DNA of 64,000 nucleotides, taken from the NCBI GenBank assembly GCA_035559535.1, contig DATMBG010000043.1, forward strand, positions 62,001 to 126,000, in the 5' to 3' direction. Below, piece by piece: positions 3,622 to 36,292 of this stretch. This DNA comes from Candidatus Limnocylindrales bacterium (GTDB taxonomy: Bacteria > Moduliflexota > Moduliflexia > Moduliflexales > JAUQPW01). The notes beneath the pieces were generated by a model that was given only the letters and a program-made list of their open reading frames with translations, was not told where the DNA came from and did not search any database. A program made the translations under genes and the position numbers. How positions within the stretch are numbered: the stretch's first letter is position 1; each line of letters starts with the position of its first letter.

Positions 3622-4377
3622 TCATAACATCCAATAAAGAAAGGTATCATGAAATCCCGCCAACAGGAAAATGATCCCGGCTATTCGACGCAGGTACTTA
3701 TCCAGATTTTTCATTTTTTTCACATAGGATTCAGCCAGCTCGGATCCAAAAAGAAAGATGGACGTGAAGACCAGGAGTGGCAAAGTGGTGCCCAGCGCAA
3801 AGATAGCCGGGAAGACCCATCCTCCGGTAGCGGATAAACTCAAGGGAATGACAACACTGAAAAACAACAGGAATAAGGTCGGGCAGAAAGCAAAGGAAAA
3901 AGCCACGCCTAGGAGAAAAGCTCCCCAGATACCTTGCTGTTGAGCTTGTTCTTTCAACCACCGGCTGAAACCTTGTCCCAGGGATATCCCTGGTTTAAAC
4001 ACCCCCAGCATATATAATCCAACCAGGATCATCAGGGGACCCAGAGCTTTTTTCACCACGATGATCACCGGGATGGAAAGGGCTTGGGCCTGAGTCCCAA
4101 AGAAGACCACCAGGCCCCCAATCAAGGAATACACCAGAACCTTCCCCAACAGGTAGGCCAAAGCAGTCCTGGCAGCCTGGAAAGGGTTAGAGAGTCGTCG
4201 AGATACATAGGCAATGGCGGTGGCATTGGTGGTCAACTGACAAGGGGCCGTAGTTCCTAAAACTCCCATGAGCAACGCGCTTAGAACCGGAATATTAAGG
4301 GCATCGCTTATTTTTGTAATGGGATCGGCAACCGAAGCATAGAATTTACTTAGAAAAGTGTACCACTCAAGTAACAT
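3622..4377 (-). CDS. CcdA/DsbD-transmembrane-domain-like (DsbD_2) protein
   Basis: About 6-7 TM helices with the two intramembrane Cys motifs GTTAPCQLTTN and FSFAFCPT. Confidence 0.8.
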   Translation of the reverse strand: MLLEWYTFLSKFYASVADPITKISDALNIPVLSALLMGVLGTTAPCQLTTNATAIAYVSRRLSNPFQAARTALAYLLGKVLVYSLIGGLVVFFGTQAQALSIPVIIVVKKALGPLMILVGLYMLGVFKPGISLGQGFSRWLKEQAQQQGIWGAFLLGVAFSFAFCPTLFLLFFSVVIPLSLSATGGWVFPAIFALGTTLPLLVFTSIFLFGSELAESYVKKMKNLDKYLRRIAGIIFLLAGFHDTFLYWML

Positions 4378-4538: not shown

Positions 4539-5249
4539 TTATTTTTCAGGTTTTTCAAGCAAATGGGCTATCAGCTTTCTCGGCTCATCCTTATCCCACA
4601 ACCGTGCTCCCATAGCTGCCCCGATAATAAACCCCTCTGGATCAATCAAATACGTGACAGGAATTCCTCTTACTGCATAAGCCTTCGCTACCCTTTGCTC
4701 AGGATCCAAAAGTGCCTGGTAGCTGAGCTTGTGCTCCTCCATATAAGATTGAACTAAGTGGGCCGAGTCTCCCTGGTCGACGGAAATAGCCAAAACAATT
4801 AACCCTTTATCCTTAAATTCTTGATAAAGTTTTTCAATGGTTGGTTTCTCAGCGCGGCACGGGCCGCACCAGGTAGCCCAGAAGTTTAAAAATACCAGTT
4901 TACCCCGAAACTCCTTTAAACTAACCTCCTGCCCCTCCAGGTTTTTCAGGGTAAAGTCTGGGGCTTCAATTTTCTCCTTGAACTTCTGCACACCAGCTTT
5001 AACAAAGAGATCTTCTTCGGCTGAAGCTAAGAGCGTCTCGACTTCCACGGCCTGGGACTCATCTACCTGGAGACCGGCCGGTCTTTTGTCTGTTGTCCCT
5101 TGTCGGTTCTCCGTTGTCTGTTGTATCCATACCTTGACCTCTGACAACGGGCCTTTAATAACTGACCAGGAACCACTGATCAGCAACAAAAGAGCTATTC
5201 CACTGACCAGGATCAAGATAAAAATCCTTACTATGATTTTTTTAAGCAT
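4539..5249 (-). CDS. Membrane-anchored TlpA/ResA-family thiol-disulfide oxidoreductase
   Basis: N-terminal TM; APDFTL...GKLVFLNFWATWCGPC; cis-Pro loop GIPVTYLID. Confidence 0.9.
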   Translation of the reverse strand: MLKKIIVRIFILILVSGIALLLLISGSWSVIKGPLSEVKVWIQQTTENRQGTTDKRPAGLQVDESQAVEVETLLASAEEDLFVKAGVQKFKEKIEAPDFTLKNLEGQEVSLKEFRGKLVFLNFWATWCGPCRAEKPTIEKLYQEFKDKGLIVLAISVDQGDSAHLVQSYMEEHKLSYQALLDPEQRVAKAYAVRGIPVTYLIDPEGFIIGAAMGARLWDKDEPRKLIAHLLEKPEK

Positions 5250-5512: not shown

Positions 5513-5821
5513 TTAGGAAAAGCAGATTACGAGCTGAGGGGGTTTAAAAAGGGAATCGATAAATTCTGATAAATGGGGGATAATATCGGCAGGGGGTAAG
5601 AAAAAGAGAAGGATTAAGCCGAATAACATAAAAAGACCAACTTCAAGGACCAGGGTGTTGGACGATAGATTACAGTTTAAAGAAGGTAGGGAATGATAAG
5701 GCTCAAAGGTAGAAGAGCAGCACAGGTGCATAAATAAGGTTAGGTACATGCAACTAATCCCGGCAATCAAGAGCGCTAAGAGACCTATGCTTATTTGTTT
5801 TCTCCGATTTATCTGATCCAT
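5513..5821 (-). CDS. Small two-TM Cys/His protein with C-terminal FKPP; putative regulatory upstream ORF
   Basis: Start re-assigned to ATG 5821 (MDQINRRK), because the longer ORF overlaps lysR and the promoter. HLCC...H...C loop and ending LSEFIDSLFKPPQ. Similar to 9362, 9799 and 34365. Confidence 0.6.
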   Translation of the reverse strand: MDQINRRKQISIGLLALLIAGISCMYLTLFMHLCCSSTFEPYHSLPSLNCNLSSNTLVLEVGLFMLFGLILLFFLPPADIIPHLSEFIDSLFKPPQLVICFS

Positions 5822-5870: not shown

Positions 5871-5899
5871 GAATTTACTAAAGATTCTCCCCATGTCAA
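5871..5899 (-). promoter_or_regulatory. Putative sigma70 promoter of the redox operon leader
   Basis: Minus strand TTGACA-N16-TAAATT about 50 nt upstream of ATG 5821. Confidence 0.4.
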
Positions 5900-8545: not shown

Positions 8546-8722
8546 TTACTTCAACTCAGAAAGTTCTCCCTTCAAAATGCTGGTTACCAACAGGTTCCAT
8601 TCTTCTTTGGAGAGTTTTACAAGATTTCCTTCCTCTCCAATATGGACTTCATCTTCATAAACTGTTACCGTTGGACAGGCACTACAGGCAGGGCACAGGG
8701 AGATAATTTGCTTAGCCTTCAT
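8546..8722 (-). CDS. 58-aa Cys-motif protein (CPACSACP), missed by the ORF track
   Basis: Hand translation MKAKQIISLCPACSACPTVTVYEDEVHIGEEGNLVKLSKEEWNLLVTSILKGELSELK*. Strong AAAGGAGG SD. Overlaps the merR stop. Confidence 0.75.
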   Translation of the reverse strand: MKAKQIISLCPACSACPTVTVYEDEVHIGEEGNLVKLSKEEWNLLVTSILKGELSELK

Positions 8723-9197
8723 GGGATTTCCCTCCTTTCTTTTTTAGATTATTCACCGTTTGGGTTTGTTCACGACCAGGAACCGGGGAATACCTCTGGA
8801 TCTGGGGACAGATAGTTTCTCTTTCAGAAGTCCTCTCGTCTGAACATTCCCACCGATATAGAAGGTCTCGGAGATCCTGTTGGAGCGTCAGCAGATCTTT
8901 GATCTGAATATCAATTTCAGAGATTTTCTGACGGATCATCTTTTGAATATGGGAACAAGGGGTTTGTCCTCTATGATAAATGTCCAGAATCTGTTTGATC
9001 TCCGAAAGTGTTAATCCCAGTCTTTGAGCCTTTTTAATAAAAACTAACCGCTCCTGGATATCCGGGTCGTAAATCCGGTATCCGGACTCCGTTCGTATCG
9101 GCTGAGGAAGAAGTCCCAGTTCTTCATAGTACCGAAGCGTTTTTGGTGAAATTCCTGTGTTTTTAGCTACTTGTCCAATATAAAGTAGTTTCTCCAT
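8712..9197 (-). CDS. MerR-family heavy-metal-responsive regulator
   Basis: IGQVAKNTGISPKTLRYYEELGLL HTH; Cys at PCSH, WEC and ICPQI; likely start ATG 9197 (MEKLL). Confidence 0.92.
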   Translation of the reverse strand: MEKLLYIGQVAKNTGISPKTLRYYEELGLLPQPIRTESGYRIYDPDIQERLVFIKKAQRLGLTLSEIKQILDIYHRGQTPCSHIQKMIRQKISEIDIQIKDLLTLQQDLRDLLYRWECSDERTSERETICPQIQRYSPVPGREQTQTVNNLKKKGGKSHEG

Positions 9198-9225
9198 AGC
9201 TTTCCCCGATCTTCTGGATACTTTT

Positions 9226-9257
9226 AAGATAAACCTTCCCCTATACGGGAAGGTCAA
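9226..9257 (-). promoter_or_regulatory. MerR-type promoter/operator of merR
   Basis: Minus strand TTGACC-N20-TATCTT with dyad ACCTTCCC-N6-GGGAAGGT in the elongated spacer (CueR/ZntR-like geometry). Confidence 0.8.
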
Positions 9258-9297: not shown

Positions 9298-9325
9298 TTG
9301 ACAGATGGCAGATAAATTCTATCTT
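9298..9325 (+). promoter_or_regulatory. Putative sigma70 promoter for leader/czcBA locus
   Basis: TTGACA-N16-TATCTT upstream of ATG 9362. Confidence 0.45.
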
Positions 9326-9361: not shown

Positions 9362-9661
9362 ATGCTTACACATTTTGTCCGTTACAGGTTTCTTTTAGTG
9401 GGTGTTATTCTGGTCTTTACAGTGGGATATCTGTGGTGTTTTATAAACCCGGAAGAAATAAAGGGCGAGCAACATAACGACTCCCACGGATCGGGTAATA
9501 ATTTCTGCTTTCACTTCTATAATCAAACGGTTCATATTGAGATACCTCTCATCTTCCTTTCTATCATCTTACTTTTCACCTTTTTCCTATCAAATCTGGG
9601 TGAAATCCTTCCTGGTTTTACCTCTCCTCTCATCGAACCACCTAGATTCCTCCCCTTATAA
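9362..9661 (+). CDS. Small two-TM Cys/His protein ending LPGFTSPLIEPPR; putative regulatory upstream ORF
   Basis: Close paralog of 34365..34649 (shared GYLWCF.NP, HNDS, FCFHFY, GEILPGFT.PLI.PP). Confidence 0.75.
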   Translation: MLTHFVRYRFLLVGVILVFTVGYLWCFINPEEIKGEQHNDSHGSGNNFCFHFYNQTVHIEIPLIFLSIILLFTFFLSNLGEILPGFTSPLIEPPRFLPL

Positions 9662-9798
9662 GGCTTTTTAGTGTCTTTTTCCGGAAATTTCCCCTTTTTT
9701 GTTTAATAGAATTTTTATCTGGGGAGGCTTTTAACTTAGATCTGTTCTGAATAAGGGGTTTAGCTTTAAGAAGCCCCTCTTGCAGAGGCATTCTTTTT

Positions 9799-10104
9799 AT
9801 GGATAAGTACCTTAAATTCTTGATAGGTGGGGTTATTTTAATTCTTTTTGTCACGGTGATAGGATGTTTTTTTGATTCTGAAGAACTAAGCTTGCAAGGG
9901 CCTAATCATGGATCTCTTCACTCCCCAGATGGATTTTGTACCAGTGTAGCCATCCCTTCGACAGCCTGTAAGGAACCCTTTTCTTTGTTTTTACTTTTCA
10001 CTGTTTTATCCTCCCGTTTGGGTTCTATCCTGCCTGGTTTCTCCCGTCCTCAAATTCATCCGCCCGATATAATTCTAACTCAGCCATCACTATCCGATTT
10101 TTAG
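9799..10104 (+). CDS. Second small two-TM Cys/His protein with ILPGFSRPQIHPP; putative regulatory upstream ORF
   Basis: Same architecture (TM-GCFF, H..H, GFC, TM, ILPGF..IxPP) directly upstream of the RND adaptor gene. Confidence 0.7.
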   Translation: MDKYLKFLIGGVILILFVTVIGCFFDSEELSLQGPNHGSLHSPDGFCTSVAIPSTACKEPFSLFLLFTVLSSRLGSILPGFSRPQIHPPDIILTQPSLSDF

Positions 10105-10191: not shown

Positions 10192-11823
10192 ATGAGCAAA
10201 AAAATAGATAAATCTAGACTTTTTTATCTCTTGTTATTCATAGTCCTGATAGGGTTTTTGATAGGTTACTCTGAATCTCAAAGAACTTCCACGAGTAGAG
10301 TGACTGACCCTCAAGGTTCCGTAACGGAATCCCTATCGGTTACAGAAAAAAATGGGGATAACCATCTGGATAAGCATAATCCTTCAGAGGAAACCCGGCC
10401 AGATCACCATCATGAAAATTCGGATGCCTGTGGTGCCGGGAATACCCGGGCAATTCAATTGAGCCAGCAGGCCATGACCAGCCTGGGAATTCAAGTTGCA
10501 GAGGTCGATATCCGAACCCTTGTAAAAGTGGTCGAGGTACCTGGAATTATCAAACTTCCTCCTCAGCGTATGACTGGAGTGAGCCCTCGGATTTCAGGCC
10601 GGGTAGAAGAAATTCTGGTCAAGCCGGGAGATAAAGTGGAAGTGGGACAAAAACTGGCTACGCTTCGAAGCCTGGAAATTGAAAACCTCCATGTAGAATT
10701 GACCGAGGCTACTCATCGGCTCAAGGCTTTGGAAGCATCTCTGACCCTCCGCCGGGAGGTACTTCAGCGGGCCATTGGAAACGAACTGGAGCGAAATCGG
10801 ATTGAGTTGATCAATGCCAGCAACAAAGTCAAACTGGCTAAACAGAGCATGGAGCGGGCTAAAAGTCTTTCTGATAAGATTCTTCCGGCCAAGGAAATTC
10901 AACAGCGAGAGTCAGAATACCTGATGGCCTTAGGAGAGTTAGAAGGCGTGAAGAAGAAGTTAAGGCTCTTAGGACTCTCAGATAAAGAGATTGACCGATT
11001 GAACTCAAAGGCCGATGGCAAATCGGCGATAGACAGTCTTTCCCTTTCTCCAAAGGAGCTTATTAAGAAGTTCACCCCCCTGGAGAGTAATGAAGCTCTC
11101 AATGAACTCCTTAATCAGGAGGCCGAATATCGGAGTCTTCAGGTAGAAATAGAAGGAAAGAAACAGCGGCTTGAGGTTTTAGGCCATCCTCCCCATCCGG
11201 GTCATCCGACCAAAGATGAAGCTATGGTTGATTTAACCTCTCCTTTAAGCGGAACTGTAACCAGCGTGGACGCAACATTAGGGATCATTGCAGAGCCCGG
11301 GAAAGTTCTCTTCCAGATTGTAGATCCTTCGGTGGTTTATGTGGAAGGAGATGTTCCGGTGGAAAATGTAGCTCTTTTCAGGCAAGGTCAGGAAGTAAGG
11401 GTTCGGGTAGCCAGTTATCCGGATGAGGTTTTTCAAGGTAAAGTCAATTATATATCGGATGTAGCCGATCCGGTAAAACGGACGATCCATATCCTGGCCG
11501 AGGTTCCCAATCCAGATCGGAAACTAAAACCAGAGATTTTTGCAACCCTTACGGTAGTTGTAGAGAAAGCCGTGGAAGCCCTGGCCGTGCCGAAAGAGTC
11601 TCTCCTCACCGAAGGGGTTGAGCGATACGTATTTGTCAAAAATGGTACGACTCTGGTTAAACAGAGTGTTGTAACCGGAATCAGCGATGATCAATATGTA
11701 GAGATCAAAGATGGGCTTTTCCCGGGCGATGTTATTGTTACCAAAGGAGCTTATGAGCTTGGCCTGGCGAGTACTCCCAAAGCAGTTCCTGTTGGAACGG
11801 ATGGGCATGCACACACTCATTGA
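10192..11823 (+). CDS. Heavy-metal RND efflux periplasmic adaptor (CzcB/CusB family) with His-rich segments
   Basis: Lipoyl-like GRVEEILVKPGDKV, long coiled coil, SPLSGTV, VTGISDDQYVEIKDGL; HHHE and C-terminal GHAHTH. Confidence 0.9.
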   Translation: MSKKIDKSRLFYLLLFIVLIGFLIGYSESQRTSTSRVTDPQGSVTESLSVTEKNGDNHLDKHNPSEETRPDHHHENSDACGAGNTRAIQLSQQAMTSLGIQVAEVDIRTLVKVVEVPGIIKLPPQRMTGVSPRISGRVEEILVKPGDKVEVGQKLATLRSLEIENLHVELTEATHRLKALEASLTLRREVLQRAIGNELERNRIELINASNKVKLAKQSMERAKSLSDKILPAKEIQQRESEYLMALGELEGVKKKLRLLGLSDKEIDRLNSKADGKSAIDSLSLSPKELIKKFTPLESNEALNELLNQEAEYRSLQVEIEGKKQRLEVLGHPPHPGHPTKDEAMVDLTSPLSGTVTSVDATLGIIAEPGKVLFQIVDPSVVYVEGDVPVENVALFRQGQEVRVRVASYPDEVFQGKVNYISDVADPVKRTIHILAEVPNPDRKLKPEIFATLTVVVEKAVEALAVPKESLLTEGVERYVFVKNGTTLVKQSVVTGISDDQYVEIKDGLFPGDVIVTKGAYELGLASTPKAVPVGTDGHAHTH

Positions 11824-11969: not shown

Positions 11970-14900
11970 ATGTGGGCTAAAATTATCGAGTTTTCACTTA
12001 AAAATAAACTATTTGTTCTGATAACAGCAGGTATTACTCTCATCTGGGGTTACAACCTTTTCCAGAAGATTCCTGTAGATCTTTATCCGGATATCAATAA
12101 CCCCCGGGTAACCATTTTAACCGAAGCGCCTGGATGGTCTCCTGAGGAGGTAGAGGCTTTAGTGACCTTTCCCCTGGAAAGTGTTTTCAATGGAACCCCC
12201 TTTGTGACCCGGGTTCGCTCTTCTTCGGGAATCGGGATTTCTGTGGTGTTTGTTGAATTTGAATGGGGAACGGATATTTTCAAGGCCCGACAGTTGGTTG
12301 CAGAAAAGCTTCAGACGGTAAAATTACCAGCCGGTGTGGAAGCCCCCTTCATGGCCCCTATTACCTCCAGGTTAGGTGAGATTGTAGAATATGCTCTAGA
12401 AGATAAAACCGGAAAGTATTCCCCCATGGATTTGCGGGATGTAGCGGATTGGATCATTCGGTTTCGGTTAAAATCCATCGGAGGGATTGCCAATGTAATC
12501 AATCAAGGAGGACTTCCCCGGCAGTACCAGGTTCAGGTGAGCCAGGATAAGCTGTTGGGCTATGGACTCAGTTTGATGGAGGTTCGGGAGGCTCTGGAAA
12601 AGGGAAATATGAATGCCTCGGGCGGGTTTCTTTTAACTCCCACCCAGGAATACTTAATCCGAGGGTTTGGGCGTGTTCAGGAGGTAAGTGACATTGAAAA
12701 CACGGTTATCACCACCAAAGAAGGTGGAATACCTGTCTTAATCAAGGATGTGGCCACCGTCAAAATAGCAGGACCTGCCATCCGTCGGGGAGCAGGAACT
12801 TTAAACGGCCAGGAGACGGTATTGGGGAAGATAAGTAAACAACCTGACACCAATACCCTTACTTTGACAAAAAAAATTCTGGAAGCTTTCAAGGAGTTGG
12901 AGAAATCCCTCCCCGAGGGGATTGTTATCAAACCCGAATATCTTCAATCGGACCTCATTGAACGTGCCCTGGCTACCGTCAAAGAAGCTCTCTTAGAAGG
13001 AGGTATTCTGGTCGTTGTTATTATTGTGGTTTTTCTGTTCAATCTTAGAACTTCCCTCATCAGCCTGACCGCGATTCCCCTTTCATTTGTCTTAACCTTG
13101 ATGATTCTCTACGGGTACGGATTGAGTATCAATAATATGACTCTGGCCGGGTTGGCCATTGCTGTAGGAATGGTTGTGGATGATGCCATCATCGATGTAG
13201 AGAACATCTTTCGACGCCTGAGGGAATATTTCTTCGGTACAGATCGGGCAGGAACAGGACAGGTTCCATGCCCTGGGGATACCCATAACAGGGCTTTTAC
13301 GTTACTATCTAAAATGGCCCAAACTCCCGGTGAGGTTGTTTTGAAGGCTTCTAACGAGATTCGAAGCGCAGTCGTCTTCGCGACCCTCATCATCATCCTG
13401 GTTTTTATTCCCCTGTTTACCCTGGAAGGGATTGAAGGTCGATTGTTTTATCCCCTGGGTCTGGCCGTAGTCATTTCTATGGCCGCTTCTCTGCTGGTAG
13501 CCCTGACGGTCACACCGGTGTTGAGCGATTTGATGTTAACAAAACCCAAGTATCTTAACGAACGGGAAAGTCCTCTGGTTCGTTGGCTTAAAAAAAGATA
13601 CCGTTCCACCCTCCATAGGGTCCTTAAAAAACCCAGACAAGTTCTGATTCCCATTATTCTCCTATTTTTAGGTTCGTTGGTTTTAATTCCGTTTATGGGT
13701 CGGGAGTTTCTCCCTATTGTAGACGAAGGGACTTTGTTGGTGAATGCAGTACTACCCCCGGGAACTTCCTTAGAGCAAACTCTGCAGGTCGGAGTACAGA
13801 TTGAGAAGGCTCTCCATGAGTTTCCCGAAGTAGTTTCTACCACTAACCGTCTGGGTCGAGCCGAAGAAGATGAACATGCCGAAGGGGTTAATACCTCTGA
13901 AATTTTGGTAAGTCTCCTCCCGCCAGAAAAACGAAAGCGGTCCCGAGAAGAACTTCTTACTGCCATGCGGGAACGGCTCAAGGAGTTTCCAGGGGTTCTC
14001 ATTACCATCGGACAACCCCTTCAACACCGTATTGATCATTTACTCTCTGGGGTCAATGCCCAGGTTGCCATCAAGCTTTTTGGTAATGATTTGAATGTCC
14101 TTCGGACCAAAGCGGAAGAGATTCATCGGGTTGTTTCTACCGTTCCAGGAGTTGCGGATCTCTTTGTAGAGCAACAGGTGGAGGTACCTCAGCTCAAGAT
14201 TCAGGTTGATCGAAAAGCTGTGGCTCGTTACGGCTTGACTATCGCAGACATCTCCCATTTTATTGAAACCGCTTTTAAAGGAGAAGCGGTAAGCCAGGTT
14301 CTCTTGGGACAACGGCAGTATGATCTGGTTGTGATCCTGGATGAAAAGAGTCGGGCGGACCTGGAAAAGCTCAAGAATCTGATTATACAGACCCCAACGG
14401 GATCTCGGGTTTCTTTGGAACAACTGGCAACGATACAGATAAACACCGGCCCTAATACCATCAATCGGGAAAATGTAGCCCGACGTATAGTGATTCAGAG
14501 TAACGTATCCGGGCGAGATCTGGGAGGATTTGTCCAGGAAGTTCAGCAGAAGATCGCAGATCAGGTAAAGCTCCCGGAAGGTTATTTTATTATCTATGGA
14601 GGGCAATTTGAAAGCCAGCAGCGTGCCTTCAAACGATTGGCTATCGAGTTTGTTCTGGTAACCCTTGTTATGTTCAGCTTGCTGTACATCAGCCTTCGCT
14701 CCGCCCCGCTGGCTATCGCCGTACTCCTGAATCTTCCTTTAGCTGTGGTAGGGGGGATTATCAGTGTATACCTGTCCGGTGGCGTACTTAACGTTTCCTC
14801 CCTGGTAGGTTTTATCTTGCTCTTCGGTATTGCCGTCCGAAATGGAGTACTTATGGTTTCCCATATTAACGATCTCCGATACCACGAGGGATTGGAATTG

Positions 14901-15179
14901 GATAAAGCTATCATACAAGGAGCCGAGGAGCGAATGACGCCGGTGTTGATGACGGCGCTGGCAACGGCTATGGGAATGGTTCCTTTGATCTGGGCACAGG
15001 GATCTGGATCAGAACTTCAGAAGCCTCTGGCTACAGTTATTGTAGGCGGAACCCTCTCGGCAACTGCTCTAACCCTGTTGGTATTACCTGTCTTGTACCG
15101 CCTGATAGAGGGACGTGGAAAGAAGGTAGAAAGTAAAAAGTCAGGAACTGGCGATCAGTTCACAGTTGTTAGCAGATAA
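11970..15179 (+). CDS. CusA/CzcA-family heavy-metal RND permease
   Basis: PVDLYPD, EAPGWSPEEVE, GMVVDDAIIDVEN, ERMTPVLMTA. Start re-assigned to ATG 11970 (MWAKIIEFSL); the upstream 50 codons are repeat-derived. Confidence 0.93.
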   Translation: MWAKIIEFSLKNKLFVLITAGITLIWGYNLFQKIPVDLYPDINNPRVTILTEAPGWSPEEVEALVTFPLESVFNGTPFVTRVRSSSGIGISVVFVEFEWGTDIFKARQLVAEKLQTVKLPAGVEAPFMAPITSRLGEIVEYALEDKTGKYSPMDLRDVADWIIRFRLKSIGGIANVINQGGLPRQYQVQVSQDKLLGYGLSLMEVREALEKGNMNASGGFLLTPTQEYLIRGFGRVQEVSDIENTVITTKEGGIPVLIKDVATVKIAGPAIRRGAGTLNGQETVLGKISKQPDTNTLTLTKKILEAFKELEKSLPEGIVIKPEYLQSDLIERALATVKEALLEGGILVVVIIVVFLFNLRTSLISLTAIPLSFVLTLMILYGYGLSINNMTLAGLAIAVGMVVDDAIIDVENIFRRLREYFFGTDRAGTGQVPCPGDTHNRAFTLLSKMAQTPGEVVLKASNEIRSAVVFATLIIILVFIPLFTLEGIEGRLFYPLGLAVVISMAASLLVALTVTPVLSDLMLTKPKYLNERESPLVRWLKKRYRSTLHRVLKKPRQVLIPIILLFLGSLVLIPFMGREFLPIVDEGTLLVNAVLPPGTSLEQTLQVGVQIEKALHEFPEVVSTTNRLGRAEEDEHAEGVNTSEILVSLLPPEKRKRSREELLTAMRERLKEFPGVLITIGQPLQHRIDHLLSGVNAQVAIKLFGNDLNVLRTKAEEIHRVVSTVPGVADLFVEQQVEVPQLKIQVDRKAVARYGLTIADISHFIETAFKGEAVSQVLLGQRQYDLVVILDEKSRADLEKLKNLIIQTPTGSRVSLEQLATIQINTGPNTINRENVARRIVIQSNVSGRDLGGFVQEVQQKIADQVKLPEGYFIIYGGQFESQQRAFKRLAIEFVLVTLVMFSLLYISLRSAPLAIAVLLNLPLAVVGGIISVYLSGGVLNVSSLVGFILLFGIAVRNGVLMVSHINDLRYHEGLELDKAIIQGAEERMTPVLMTALATAMGMVPLIWAQGSGSELQKPLATVIVGGTLSATALTLLVLPVLYRLIEGRGKKVESKKSGTGDQFTVVSR

Positions 15180-15246
15180 CCGGCTCGTCTCTAGGGTAGA
15201 GAACCCCCAGAGATCAGCTCTGTTAATAAGGAAAGGAGAAAACACT

Positions 15247-15711
15247 ATGAAGTACTTACAACGATCTAAAATCTACTGCCCATTGATTGTATCAATCCTG
15301 TTTGCATTCAGCCCGGTATTCATCGCCCATTTAACCTGGTCTGCTCAAGAAACCGGTAAGGAAGGCCATACCGAGAAAGCGCCCCATCAGGGTCAACTGT
15401 TGGATACCGGGGAGAAACATGTGGAATTTTTAGTAAAAGGAGGAAAAGAAGTTTACGTCTATCTTTACGATAAAAACCTGAAACCCATTTCAGCGGAAGG
15501 GATCGAAGGAGTCGTTTATTTCAGATTAACAGATAACAGCAGAAGAGAATCCAAACTGGCCCCGGTCAAAGAAAAAGACACAACCTTCCTTAAGGGAAAC
15601 GTAGACCTCGGGACGAAAGATTATAGTGAAGCCGTAGTCAGTTTAAAGAGAGGGGATAAGAAAGAGAATTTAAGGTTCGGCCATCCAGCCGGGCAAGAAC
15701 ATCATCAATAG
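15247..15711 (+). CDS. Exported His-containing protein (HTEKAPHQGQL motif), RND-locus accessory
   Basis: AAGGAG SD, signal peptide, GHTEKAPHQGQLL..HVEFL, C-terminal EHHQ. Confidence 0.7.
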   Translation: MKYLQRSKIYCPLIVSILFAFSPVFIAHLTWSAQETGKEGHTEKAPHQGQLLDTGEKHVEFLVKGGKEVYVYLYDKNLKPISAEGIEGVVYFRLTDNSRRESKLAPVKEKDTTFLKGNVDLGTKDYSEAVVSLKRGDKKENLRFGHPAGQEHHQ

Positions 15712-34278: not shown

Positions 34279-34307
34279 TTGACGAGATCCAAATAGATGG
34301 TTATACT
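34279..34307 (+). promoter_or_regulatory. Putative sigma70 promoter for leader/tolC
   Basis: TTGACG-N17-TATACT upstream of ATG 34365. Confidence 0.6.
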
Positions 34308-34364: not shown

Positions 34365-34649
34365 ATGCCGCGGAATTCTAGACCTTACAGATTTCTTTTA
34401 ATAGTAGCTATTTTGCTATTTTCCGTGGGATACCTGTGGTGCTTTCTAAATCCCCATGAATGGAGAGATATAGAGCATAATGATTCTTCTAACTTAGGAA
34501 ACGGCTTCTGTTTTCATTTTTATTATCAGCATCTTCATCTGATGGTCCCCGGAGTATTGGTTTTTATAGTAGTACTTTCTACGATCTCGCTTCCAACCCC
34601 TGGCGAAATCCTTCCCGGTTTTACCTATCCTCTCATCCAGCCACCTTGA
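34365..34649 (+). CDS. Small two-TM Cys/His protein ending LPGFTYPLIQPP; putative regulatory upstream ORF
   Basis: Paralog of 9362..9661; lies directly upstream of a CzcC-like gene. Confidence 0.75.
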   Translation: MPRNSRPYRFLLIVAILLFSVGYLWCFLNPHEWRDIEHNDSSNLGNGFCFHFYYQHLHLMVPGVLVFIVVLSTISLPTPGEILPGFTYPLIQPP

Positions 34650-34939: not shown

Positions 34940-36292
34940 TTGGCGTGTGAACCCTATCTTGTGAAGCGTGTTAAACCCTTTTTTTCAATCTTATTCTCTG
35001 TACTGGTGAGTCTGAACGGTTTGTTGAACGATCCATTACAGGTAATGGGTCAGGAGGTTCCTAAACTCAATCCCACTAAGTCTTATACTTTAGATGAACT
35101 TTTGACCTTTACCATGGAGCATAATCCGGAAATATTGGCAGCTAAGGCAGAAATCGATATAGCCAGGGGAGAGTTGATAACCTCGGGACTCCTTCCCAAT
35201 CCAAGAATTGAGTTTACGGGAAGAAATCAGCGTATTCCGGATGGAGATTTGTCCGGGTTTAATTATGATGTGAACTTAAGCCAGGAAATTCCCCTGGGTG
35301 GGAAAATAGGACATCGCAAACGGGTGGCCCAATTAAAACTGGAAAAAGCCCATTTAGATTTTCAGAATGTGGTTCGGCTAAAAACGGCCGAGGTCAAAAA
35401 AGCTTTTTATGCCGTGTTATTTAATCAAAGGCGACAGGAGTTAATAAAGGAAGTCCTGGAGGTTAACAGGATTATTTTAGATATTGCTAACAAACGCTAT
35501 AAAGCCGGAGATATCCCTCTCATGGGAGTCAATCTGGCCTCTATTGAATTACAGAGGACAACTACGGAAAGTCTAAACCTTCAAAATGAGCTCAGTCAGG
35601 CGAATTCCGAGCTTTTAATGGCTCTGGGGGTTATCCTGGATTCCGGGGGGCCTTCCGGGGTGGAGGGTCTCAAAGTGGAAGGGACCCTCTCTAAGGAAGA
35701 GATTCAGTTTAATCTGACCGAATTAATCCAATTTGCTCTGGCCAATCGGCCGGATTATAAAAGTCTTCAAGTAGCCGTAAAAGCAGCAGAGGCCGATATT
35801 TCCCTGGCCCGGGCAGAAGGAGTTCCGGATATCGAGGTTGGGGGCACTTTTGAGCGAGAGTTAGGAAATGAGCGCCGTATAGGGGGGTTTGTTTCTATTC
35901 CTCTTCCTCTCTTTAACCGGAATCAGGGGGAGATTGCTAAGTCTCTGAGCCGCAAGGATCAGGTAAGCCTGGAATTGGCAGCTTTGAAAAATAGGATCGA
36001 GCAAGAGGTACGAATCGGATTTGCCAAGGTTGAAACCGGTAAGAAAAATCTGGATGTGTTTCAGCGAGGTCTTATCCAACTGGTCCGAGAAAATCTGGAG
36101 TTAAACCGGAAAGCTTTCCAGGCAGGGGAGATTGAATTTCTGGAAGTTGCTCGGGCAGAAGAAGACTTCATTCGAACAAATACCCTCTTTTTAGAAGCCC
36201 TCTATAACTATAATCTGGCTTTGATCGAGCTGGAAACGGCTATGGGAAGTCAATTTACCAGGGCTTTGAGGGGTACCGAAGAGAAGAAATAA
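34940..36292 (+). CDS. TolC/CzcC-family outer-membrane efflux protein (orphan)
   Basis: GLLPNP, SQEIPLGGK, SIPLPLFNRNQGEI; start uncertain (TTG 34940 or GTG 34961). Confidence 0.88.
   Translation: MACEPYLVKRVKPFFSILFSVLVSLNGLLNDPLQVMGQEVPKLNPTKSYTLDELLTFTMEHNPEILAAKAEIDIARGELITSGLLPNPRIEFTGRNQRIPDGDLSGFNYDVNLSQEIPLGGKIGHRKRVAQLKLEKAHLDFQNVVRLKTAEVKKAFYAVLFNQRRQELIKEVLEVNRIILDIANKRYKAGDIPLMGVNLASIELQRTTTESLNLQNELSQANSELLMALGVILDSGGPSGVEGLKVEGTLSKEEIQFNLTELIQFALANRPDYKSLQVAVKAAEADISLARAEGVPDIEVGGTFERELGNERRIGGFVSIPLPLFNRNQGEIAKSLSRKDQVSLELAALKNRIEQEVRIGFAKVETGKKNLDVFQRGLIQLVRENLELNRKAFQAGEIEFLEVARAEEDFIRTNTLFLEALYNYNLALIELETAMGSQFTRALRGTEEKK

Follow-up and report, generated by a model that had tools for sequence, protein, structure and literature searches.

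What do four small open reading frames (ORFs), each standing ahead of metal or redox genes and each carrying two consecutive prolines (PP) near its C-terminus, do for the genes that follow them? The ORFs lie in the window, the 64,000-nt stretch of DNA analyzed here (contig DATMBG010000043.1, positions 62,001–126,000 of the forward strand, in a 5.6-Mb genome). A preliminary description had grouped them as metal-sensing leaders that arrest the ribosome, and the positions it gave were confirmed, with lengths of 94–102 residues:

5513–5821, minus strand: ORF1, type C leader-like gene, 102 residues; ISC..HLCCSS..NC..IPHLSEFIDSLFKPP followed by QLVICFS; PP codons 5537–5542; ratio of non-synonymous to synonymous substitution rates (dN/dS) 0.18–0.22
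9362–9661, plus strand: ORF2, type A leader-like gene, 99 residues; YLWCF..HNDSH..FCFHFY..ILPGFTSPLIEPP followed by RFLPL; PP codons 9638–9643
9799–10104, plus strand: ORF3, type B leader-like gene, 101 residues; VIGCFF..HGSLH..FCT..ILPGFSRPQIHPP followed by DIILTQPSLSDF; PP codons 10060–10065
34365–34649, plus strand: ORF4, second type A gene, 94 residues; PP codons 34641–34646, then TGA

We propose, with a probability of about 55%, that the four ORFs are cis-acting, metal- or redox-sensing stalling leaders of the CutF/CruR kind, unrelated to these in sequence. Behind this proposal stand comparative observations: (i) the tail peptide is under selection up to and including its PP, (ii) the loop Cys keeps a near-constant distance to the PP, (iii) the first position in the gene cluster and the kinds of neighbours are constant, and (iv) a noncoding element that follows the type A ORFs is conserved.

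Family membership and selection on the proline tail

Alignment of the four ORFs, whose tails read ILPGFTSPLIEPP, ILPGFSRPQIHPP, ILPGFTYPLIQPP and IPHLSEFIDSLFKPP, reveals a common plan that bears out the architecture first described. A basic N-terminus is followed by a segment of 15–18 uncharged residues that runs up to an invariant Cys, and then come a loop that carries His residues and another conserved Cys, a further hydrophobic stretch and the xPP tail. Three subtypes, 18–35% identical to one another, can be distinguished: type A (ORF2 and ORF4; pattern WCF..HNDSH..FCFHFY..ILPGFTxPLIxPP), type B (ORF3) and type C (ORF1). The basic N-terminus and the 15–18 uncharged residues after it are present in all members and helical in an AlphaFold2 model, and the segment could be a signal anchor or a signal for signal peptidase I (SPI) or II (SPII). 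The model consists of two long helices (residues 2–28 and 48–82) and a coil tail, and is of low confidence (predicted local distance difference test, pLDDT, 64; predicted template modelling score, pTM, 0.35). The second hydrophobic segment comprises 15–18 residues in types A and C and about 12 residues, including an Arg, in type B.

The invariant Cys is kept in 24/24 members of the alignment that was used for all tail and Cys counts (all figures are comparative); it may serve for lipidation, for metal binding or for a disulfide bond. Types A and B contain two single Cys 22–23 residues apart; type C contains CC and a further Cys. Ahead of the invariant Cys, type A has Y-L-W, type B (9799–9870) has V-I-G, and type C (5750–5821, minus strand, for the window copy) has G-I-S or A-L-S. 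Compared with the lipobox pattern at the end of lipoprotein signals, [LVI][ASTVI][GAS]C, VIGC of type B fits, GISC and ALSC of type C fit only a relaxed pattern, and YLWC of type A does not fit.

The family is small. A rule-based scan of 891 ORF and start combinations of 45–160 residues in the window (hydrophobic N-terminus; at least two Cys or His mid-protein; PP within the last 17 residues) gave eight hits, which reduce to the four ORFs and alternative starts of them. In their own genome, a profile built on these ORFs matched exactly four places, all inside the window. In a survey of 61 genomes (own, same genus, same order, then diverse), four matched at an expectation value (E) of 0.01 or less; the real ones are the own genome and a same-genus genome, G001, with six family copies, and 0/7 same-order genomes matched. 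The weak matches in G036 (E 8.1e-4) and G018 (E 2.1e-3) are spurious, lacking the proline tail and lying inside or against unrelated larger ORFs, and a Flavipsychrobacter tblastn match (L014) was likewise rejected as spurious. Profile searching of 5.8 billion protein clusters returned 17 proteins, and an exhaustive HMMER search of 1.84 billion representatives returned eight; the proteins from these database searches are 35–129 residues long and belong to the same three subtypes. Family lengths are 91–103 residues, plus one 129-residue call with a longer start, and a search aimed at longer proteins turned up neither fusions nor extended forms, which is weak evidence. A hidden Markov model of the four ORFs had been proposed as a check on the preliminary description; the hits that withstood inspection are family copies, and each locus for which DNA was available heads envelope metal or redox genes.

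Among 11 ortholog and paralog pairs involving G001 and metagenome contigs, ten gave dN/dS values of 0.15–0.47, and the eleventh is synonymously saturated; the synonymous divergence between ORF2 and ORF4 is saturated. These values show purifying selection, so the four ORFs, which are real paralogs, are translated and maintained as proteins. Selection together with recurrence in relatives rules out chance ORFs. No Shine-Dalgarno (SD) sequence was seen upstream of ORF2.

The PP is retained in 23 of the 24 aligned members, and reading frames are intact in 23/24. The single PP exception, a type C copy in G001 (L012:1501–1794), has a 1-nt deletion inside the PP codons, so that it ends ..SLYNPLG. On one side it is flanked by a truncated E1-E2 ATPase fragment with a transposase-like ORF, on the other by an HMA-DsbD_2-cupredoxin-like fusion gene, and the copy is probably decaying. 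Tails end in IEPP, IQPP, IKPP, IHPP, FKPP, YKPP or FQPP, and none has R-A before the PP. In type B the PP is read as HPPD or HPPN, and PPD and PPN are among the stronger motifs that depend on elongation factor P (EF-P).

Over the 16 codons ending at PP, the proportion of changed non-synonymous sites (pN) is 0.06–0.12 in diverged pairs, against 0.22–0.68 for synonymous sites (pS), which indicates that the peptide is selected, and not only the RNA. Between the ORF3 tail and its ortholog on metagenome contig L018, for instance, synonymous changes amount to 7 in 13.2 sites and non-synonymous changes to 3 in 34.8. Beyond the PP, the extension is variable and 0–13 residues long, most variably so in type B. 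In ORF4, TGA immediately follows the PP where the G001 ortholog (L008) reads PPRSL, and the next codons, TCC CTT TGA, are still recognizable; judged from this comparison, a nonsense change right after the PP is tolerated in ORF4. The variable extension and the ORF4 stop together suggest that the selected unit ends at the PP.

Types A and C place the loop Cys 43 residues before the first Pro, and type B places it 40 residues before, with two exceptions, P0015 and P0019; such near-constant spacing could also follow from a fixed helix length. P0019, a metagenome protein and a type A variant, is missing the His loop (..WCFLNLNETNSFCPCQNLH..) and retains the full tail ILPGFTLPVIEPPRSL, so the tail is kept even where the presumed sensor loop has been remodelled.

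Resemblance to CutF, CruR and related small proteins

Both CutF and CruR are described as small genes in first position whose products have an export signal, a Cys motif and, at the C-terminus, a proline motif; copper is sensed by the nascent chain, and its pausing governs the gene that follows (PMC9426467; PMC9973294). CruR (Bp2923 of Bordetella pertussis; DUF2946/PF11162) heads a copper operon and is reported to act via Rho-dependent termination, with a 162-nt spacer and a Rho utilization (rut) site within a region richer in C than in G (C>G); in the same account, DUF2946 proteins have a CXXC motif and a C-terminal RAPP with 45 residues between them, within 1–2 (PMC9426467). CutF of Rhodobacter capsulatus cutFOG is described as melting a stem-loop over the SD site (PMC9973294; bioRxiv 10.1101/2025.02.05.636593). 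A set of 5,334 ‘CutF-like’ proteins has been defined by rules; OEP, ACR_tran and HlyD_D23 are given as frequent downstream of them, and lipoprotein signals occur among them (PMC9973294).

The present family resembles CutF in being a small first gene of a metal operon with a putative N-terminal export signal, a Cys motif that would face the periplasm and a C-terminal proline motif. Its commonest downstream neighbours are OEP, ACR_tran and HlyD_D23, as reported for the CutF-like class. It agrees with the rules for that class in protein length, in a PP that lies 0–13 residues from the end in 23/24 members, and in metal or redox neighbours that follow after gaps of 87–290 nt in the window. As in CutF, a stem-loop, here before ORF3, contains the SD-like run of the next gene. 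The two differ in that (i) no sequence relation is detectable by Pfam scanning or in two small hhalign comparisons, with DUF2946 and DUF6769 profiles, (ii) CutF has CxxxC and PPP where the family has two single Cys 22 residues apart (types A and B) or CC plus C (type C), and xPP, (iii) the family has a second hydrophobic segment between sensor and tail, and (iv) its gaps are 87–290 nt, its hairpin lies 112 nt past the stop, and two of its leaders stand in tandem.

Likeness to CruR, as that protein is described, extends to an upstream ORF heading a copper operon, to the Cys-to-proline spacing (40–43 residues here, 45 in the CruR family), to a motif a few residues from the C-terminus, to a long intergenic region (162 nt in CruR) and to C>G in the 3′ part of the ORF. 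The family differs from CruR in the absence of a PF11162 match, of CXXC and of RAPP, and in its downstream genes: a TonB-dependent importer follows CruR, whereas exporters or redox genes follow the family, and the sign of regulation would therefore probably be opposite.

DUF6769 proteins (PF20558; Bacteroidota, loci L101 and L102) likewise begin with a hydrophobic segment, are rich in His and Cys in the middle and carry a proline motif, in their case 2 residues from the end, and in both genomes they directly precede genes for His-rich membrane-fusion (CusB-like) proteins. Unlike the family, they end in GLRAPP, are about 140 residues long and are much richer in His and Cys. Those fusion proteins have His-rich N-termini, as does the membrane-fusion protein at 10192–11823 of the window. 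CzcI and CzcI2 of Cupriavidus metallidurans, and CopL of Xanthomonas, resemble the family by description as small Cys/His proteins upstream of czcCBA or copA that affect downstream metal genes. The CzcI type is discussed as regulators without a proline motif, by which description it is set apart from the family, and CopL is reported not to act in trans (PMC9973294).

Tests for membership in DUF2946 or DUF6769, by Pfam, genome search and hhalign, were negative. None of the 24 members matched PF11162 or PF20558 at E ≤ 10; a search of the own genome gave no PF11162 match; CXXC at the conserved positions and RAPP are absent from all members; and hhalign gave probabilities of 5% against DUF2946 and 0.6% against DUF6769, weak tests with thin profiles of two sequences each. 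Profiles were this small because gathering DUF2946 sequences yielded few: one hit in 150 genomes of one phylum, none in 400 diverse genomes at E ≤ 1e-5 (a threshold probably too strict for short proteins), and only itself when one DUF2946 ORF was used for a protein search. The two DUF2946 and two DUF6769 ORFs obtained have the same order of parts as the family, one DUF2946 ORF with a long second hydrophobic segment. In a protein-language-model search, a cluster labelled DUF2946/DUF6769 ranked 20th with a score of 0.92, which is a lead only. The preliminary description thus holds in calling the family sequence-distinct from DUF2946, and the analogy it drew with CruR and CutF finds support in the order of parts, the conserved tail peptide, the PP, the Cys-to-PP spacing and the first position.

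From this analogy we infer targeting, sensing, pausing and an effect in cis, as follows. The N-terminal hydrophobic segment would bring the nascent chain to the membrane translocon. With the ribosome at the conserved tail and its two Pro codons, the Cys/His loop, 40–43 residues behind, would be just outside the ribosome and entering the envelope, where metal on the loop, or the thiol or disulfide state of the loop, would alter the length of the pause at xPP. The paused ribosome would occupy a C-rich, G-poor stretch and set how much downstream message is made or translated; such a C>G stretch (C 0.28–0.36, G 0.05–0.13) extends through the 3′ half of each of the four ORFs to just beyond the stop. 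The likeliest route would be protection from premature termination, either of the Rho type as for CruR or at the terminator-like hairpin before ORF3. The long spacers, the C>G stretch and this hairpin favour termination control, and direct melting of an anti-SD helix appears less likely. Types A and B would gate genes for efflux of copper or other metals, and type C would gate thiol-redox and copper-chaperone genes (TlpA, CcdA, SCO1).

RNA elements, promoters and neighbouring genes

Two elements lie between ORF2 and ORF3:

9662–9798, plus strand: conserved noncoding element; 119/137 nt identical to L018, where type A ORF protein identity is only 65%
9776–9788, plus strand: hairpin CCTCT-TGC-AGAGG followed by a U-tract; terminator-like, and containing the only SD-like run before ORF3

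The ORF2 tail codons and the 137-nt spacer form the best-conserved stretch, at 83–97% identity to L018 per 30 nt, against 50–80% in the body of ORF2; 35.4 of 69 synonymous sites in ORF2 have changed relative to L018 while 119/137 spacer positions are identical. The spacer is non-coding on either strand: a minus-strand ORF at 9642–9854, considered as the cause of its conservation, is broken by frameshifts in relatives. No Rfam family matched, the one rimP-leader match (E 0.78) being below threshold.

A U-rich element of about 75 nt (..YTTTTTTCGGARATTTTYYC..ATTTAA..) occurs after type A ORFs whatever the next gene (9662–9761; L019:4659–4735, on a second metagenome contig; and L008). Similarity over the 75 nt past the stop was judged against 500 shuffles per comparison, and was matched by 0/500 shuffles both for window ORF2 against L019 and for L019 against the G001 ortholog of ORF4. 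Weaker similarities were obtained for window ORF2 against the same G001 ortholog (43/500) and against window ORF4 (362/500), where the element is decayed. No convincing structure was found for this element, and an apparent motif linking the sequences past the stops of the three subtypes does not rise above shuffles (A with B, 334/500; A with C, 146–159/500).

Pairing in the hairpin is kept with changed bases (GCCTCC/GGAGGC in G001, CTCC/GGAG in L018), a comparison of three sequences only. The hairpin lies 112 nt past the stop of ORF2, too far for direct melting by a ribosome at the PP. Fold z-scores of the ORF4 and ORF1 spacers are −2.03 and −1.75; the leader between ORF3 and the fusion-protein gene is poorly conserved and less structured than shuffles. 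Two candidate switches were rejected: a four-segment anti-SD switch from ORF2 to ORF3, unsupported by folding and by conservation of pairing, and SD sequestration before the fusion-protein gene, where the leader folds worse than shuffles (z +0.91).

Promoter-like sites, which are consensus matches only and not evidence of transcription, precede three of the ORFs:

5872–5899, minus strand: before ORF1, TTGACA-16-TAAATT, 10/12 consensus matches
9298–9325, plus strand: before ORF2, TTGACA-16-TATCTT, 10/12 consensus matches
34279–34307, plus strand: before ORF4, TTGACG-17-TATACT, 10/12 consensus matches

TTGACx promoters had been noted in the preliminary description; matches do lie upstream of ORF1, ORF2 and ORF4, and their value is positional only, the number of such sites per region not being above shuffles. 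Hexamers, or the core of the site, are common to ORF2 and ORF4 despite the divergence of the two type A loci. An inverted repeat, AGATA-N6-TATCT (9309–9324), overlaps the −10-like hexamer of the ORF2 site, beside a divergent MerR gene. MerR-type promoters have a spacing of 19–20 nt, and the hexamers here are spaced by 16–17 nt.

Neighbouring genes were identified by Pfam scans:

3622–4377, minus strand: DsbD_2/CcdA-like membrane protein, downstream of ORF1; DsbD_2 2.8e-26
4539–5249, minus strand: TlpA-like redoxin, downstream of ORF1; AhpC-TSA 3.3e-32, Redoxin 1.5e-24
8712–9257, minus strand: MerR-family regulator, divergent from ORF2; MerR_1 1e-18, MerR-DNA-bind 2.2e-17
10192–11823, plus strand: membrane-fusion protein gene, downstream of ORF3; HlyD_D23 5.2e-42
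11970–15179, plus strand: resistance-nodulation-division (RND) pump gene, downstream of ORF3; ACR_tran 7.2e-293
34940–36292, plus strand: outer-membrane efflux protein gene, downstream of ORF4; OEP 5.3e-56; 290-nt gap if the TTG start is right

The island reads ORF2, ORF3, HlyD_D23, ACR_tran, a 181-residue His-rich protein, OEP, then a multicopper oxidase and a P-type ATPase with YHS and HMA domains; ORF4 precedes the second OEP of the window, and a LysR regulator gene lies upstream of ORF1. The tlpA-ccdA, RND and OEP genes are thus as first reported. The label of the island had to be changed: with a multicopper oxidase and a YHS+HMA P-type ATPase following and a MerR regulator divergent, it looks copper-type (Cus-like), and not specifically Czc. 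The 181-residue ORF between the RND pump and OEP genes (15166–15711) has a signal-like N-terminus and His-rich ends (..KEGHTEKAPHQGQ.., ..GHPAGQEHHQ) and no Pfam match; its product is a candidate accessory protein that would bind metal in the periplasm. In the membrane-fusion protein, the N-terminal region is rich in His (..RPDHHHENSD..), and the C-terminus reads ..DGHAHTH.

DNA context was available for 13 copies from four sources. In 12/12 gene-context observations, made at nine operon heads, a gap is followed on the same strand by the small ORF as the leading gene. The arrangements are A-B-HlyD_D23(-ACR_tran) at three loci (window, G001, L018), A-OEP at two (window, G001), A followed by a Met/Gly-rich secreted protein at one (L019), C-redoxin(-DsbD_2) at two (window, G001), C-SCO1/SenC at one (G001), and the frameshifted C before the HMA-DsbD_2-cupredoxin-like fusion at one (G001). 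Secreted proteins made mainly of MGPGMM/GGGMM repeats, with no Pfam match, adjoin type A or C ORFs (L019:4883–5413; L011:309–776); from their composition they look like methionine-rich copper-binding proteins.

Alternative explanations and meaning of the family

Several points weigh against stalling leaders. The family has xPP with E, Q, K or H at x, and not RAPP or PPP, and EF-P ordinarily relieves pausing at most diprolines of this sort. With a ribosome footprint masked at the PP, the ORF3 hairpin stayed closed in minimum-energy structures; a predicted pairing of 9647–9655, the codons after the PP, with GGGGAGG at 9721–9727 loses 3/7 pairs in L018; and the fold z-scores of the ORF2–ORF3 spacer (−0.20) and of the leader from ORF3 to the fusion-protein gene (+0.91) are no better than shuffles. 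The intergenic gaps are long (137, 87, 290 and 263 nt). The C>G stretch may reflect Leu, Phe, Pro and Ser codons, and equally skewed windows make up 2.5–3.5% of the 64 kb. No sequence or profile link joins the family to DUF2946 or DUF6769 (Pfam, and hhalign as a weak test). Tandem leaders are not described in the main text of the key CutF and CruR papers, to which the literature comparison was confined.

Selection over the whole ORF and a possible true membrane helix, the second segment of types A and C, could also fit a stable protein. The main alternative, less likely than the leader reading, is that the ORFs encode stable small two-helix hairpins of the inner membrane with a periplasmic Cys/His metal site. 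These would serve the RND pump, the outer-membrane channel or the TlpA/SCO1/CcdA system in trans, whether as accessory subunit, metallochaperone or sensor, and the proline tail, lying in the cytoplasm, would be a docking motif. Purifying selection along the whole length, the two long helices of the AlphaFold2 model and hydrophobic segments that are long enough in types A and C agree with this, the tandem paralogs A and B would suit a heteromer, and CzcI-type small proteins without a proline motif are discussed upstream of czcCBA (PMC9973294). It accords less well with the low confidence of that model, with a tail that is most conserved up to the PP and free to vary or vanish beyond it, with a second hydrophobic run of only about 12 residues containing an Arg in type B, and with the lack of fused or longer forms; nor does a trans-acting protein need the noncoding element that accompanies type A.

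It is unlikely that types B and C are small lipoproteins with a lipidated invariant Cys that handle metal or thiols in the periplasm, their operon position being ordinary co-expression. The residues before the Cys fit a relaxed lipobox in both types, yet the Y-L-W of type A misfits while the Cys is invariant throughout, and neither the second hydrophobic segment nor the conserved proline tail is a lipoprotein feature. A lipoprotein signal would moreover be compatible with a leader role, being found among CutF-like proteins (PMC9973294). Very improbably, the ORFs are incidental and the functional unit is the surrounding noncoding RNA or DNA, such as an attenuator or an operator. In its favour, conservation is higher in the spacer after ORF2 than in the body of that ORF, and in one pair the type A tail has a pS of 0.22, against 0.51 in the rest of the ORF; the dN/dS values are nevertheless well below 1 in 10/10 computable pairs, the tail peptide has survived many synonymous substitutions in types B and C and in further type A pairs, frames are intact in 23/24 members, the minus-strand ORF over the spacer is broken and Rfam gave no match.

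The concept of stalling leaders is already published for the broad CutF-like class before OEP, ACR_tran and HlyD_D23, as far as that class is described in PMC9973294. What is new is the family itself, the xPP after an ILPGF or IPHLSEF tail, the placing of A and B in tandem and the association of type C with TlpA, SCO1 and CcdA; a related cluster could nevertheless exist among the CutF-like clusters of PMC9973294. A more elaborate and rather doubtful version of the leader model is a two-stage nascent-chain sensor, in which A and then B, joined by a conserved RNA element of about 140 nt and a terminator-like hairpin, would act in series before one efflux operon, the pump being made only if both report stress, and type C would report periplasmic thiol or copper status to the TlpA, SCO1 and CcdA genes. 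If that were true, the family would have arisen independently of DUF2946 in an uncultured lineage, and ‘sensor loop, 40–45 residues, diproline’ would be a convergent design set by the combined length of the ribosome tunnel and the translocon.

Should the leader model hold, transmembrane stalling as in CutF and CruR would not be tied to one protein family, and the principle could have been reinvented with another sensor loop and with xPP in place of RAPP or PPP. This would widen the search space and account for unannotated small ORFs heading metal operons in uncultured bacteria, and type C would extend the idea from metal export to thiol-redox chemistry and copper delivery (TlpA, SCO1, CcdA). 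For the question of how two leaders combine, the A-B tandem and the conserved spacer between them make a compact system. If the ORFs instead encode stable two-helix proteins, RND pumps and TlpA would gain new small partners. In both cases, the members are proteins currently called ‘hypothetical’ or not called at all.

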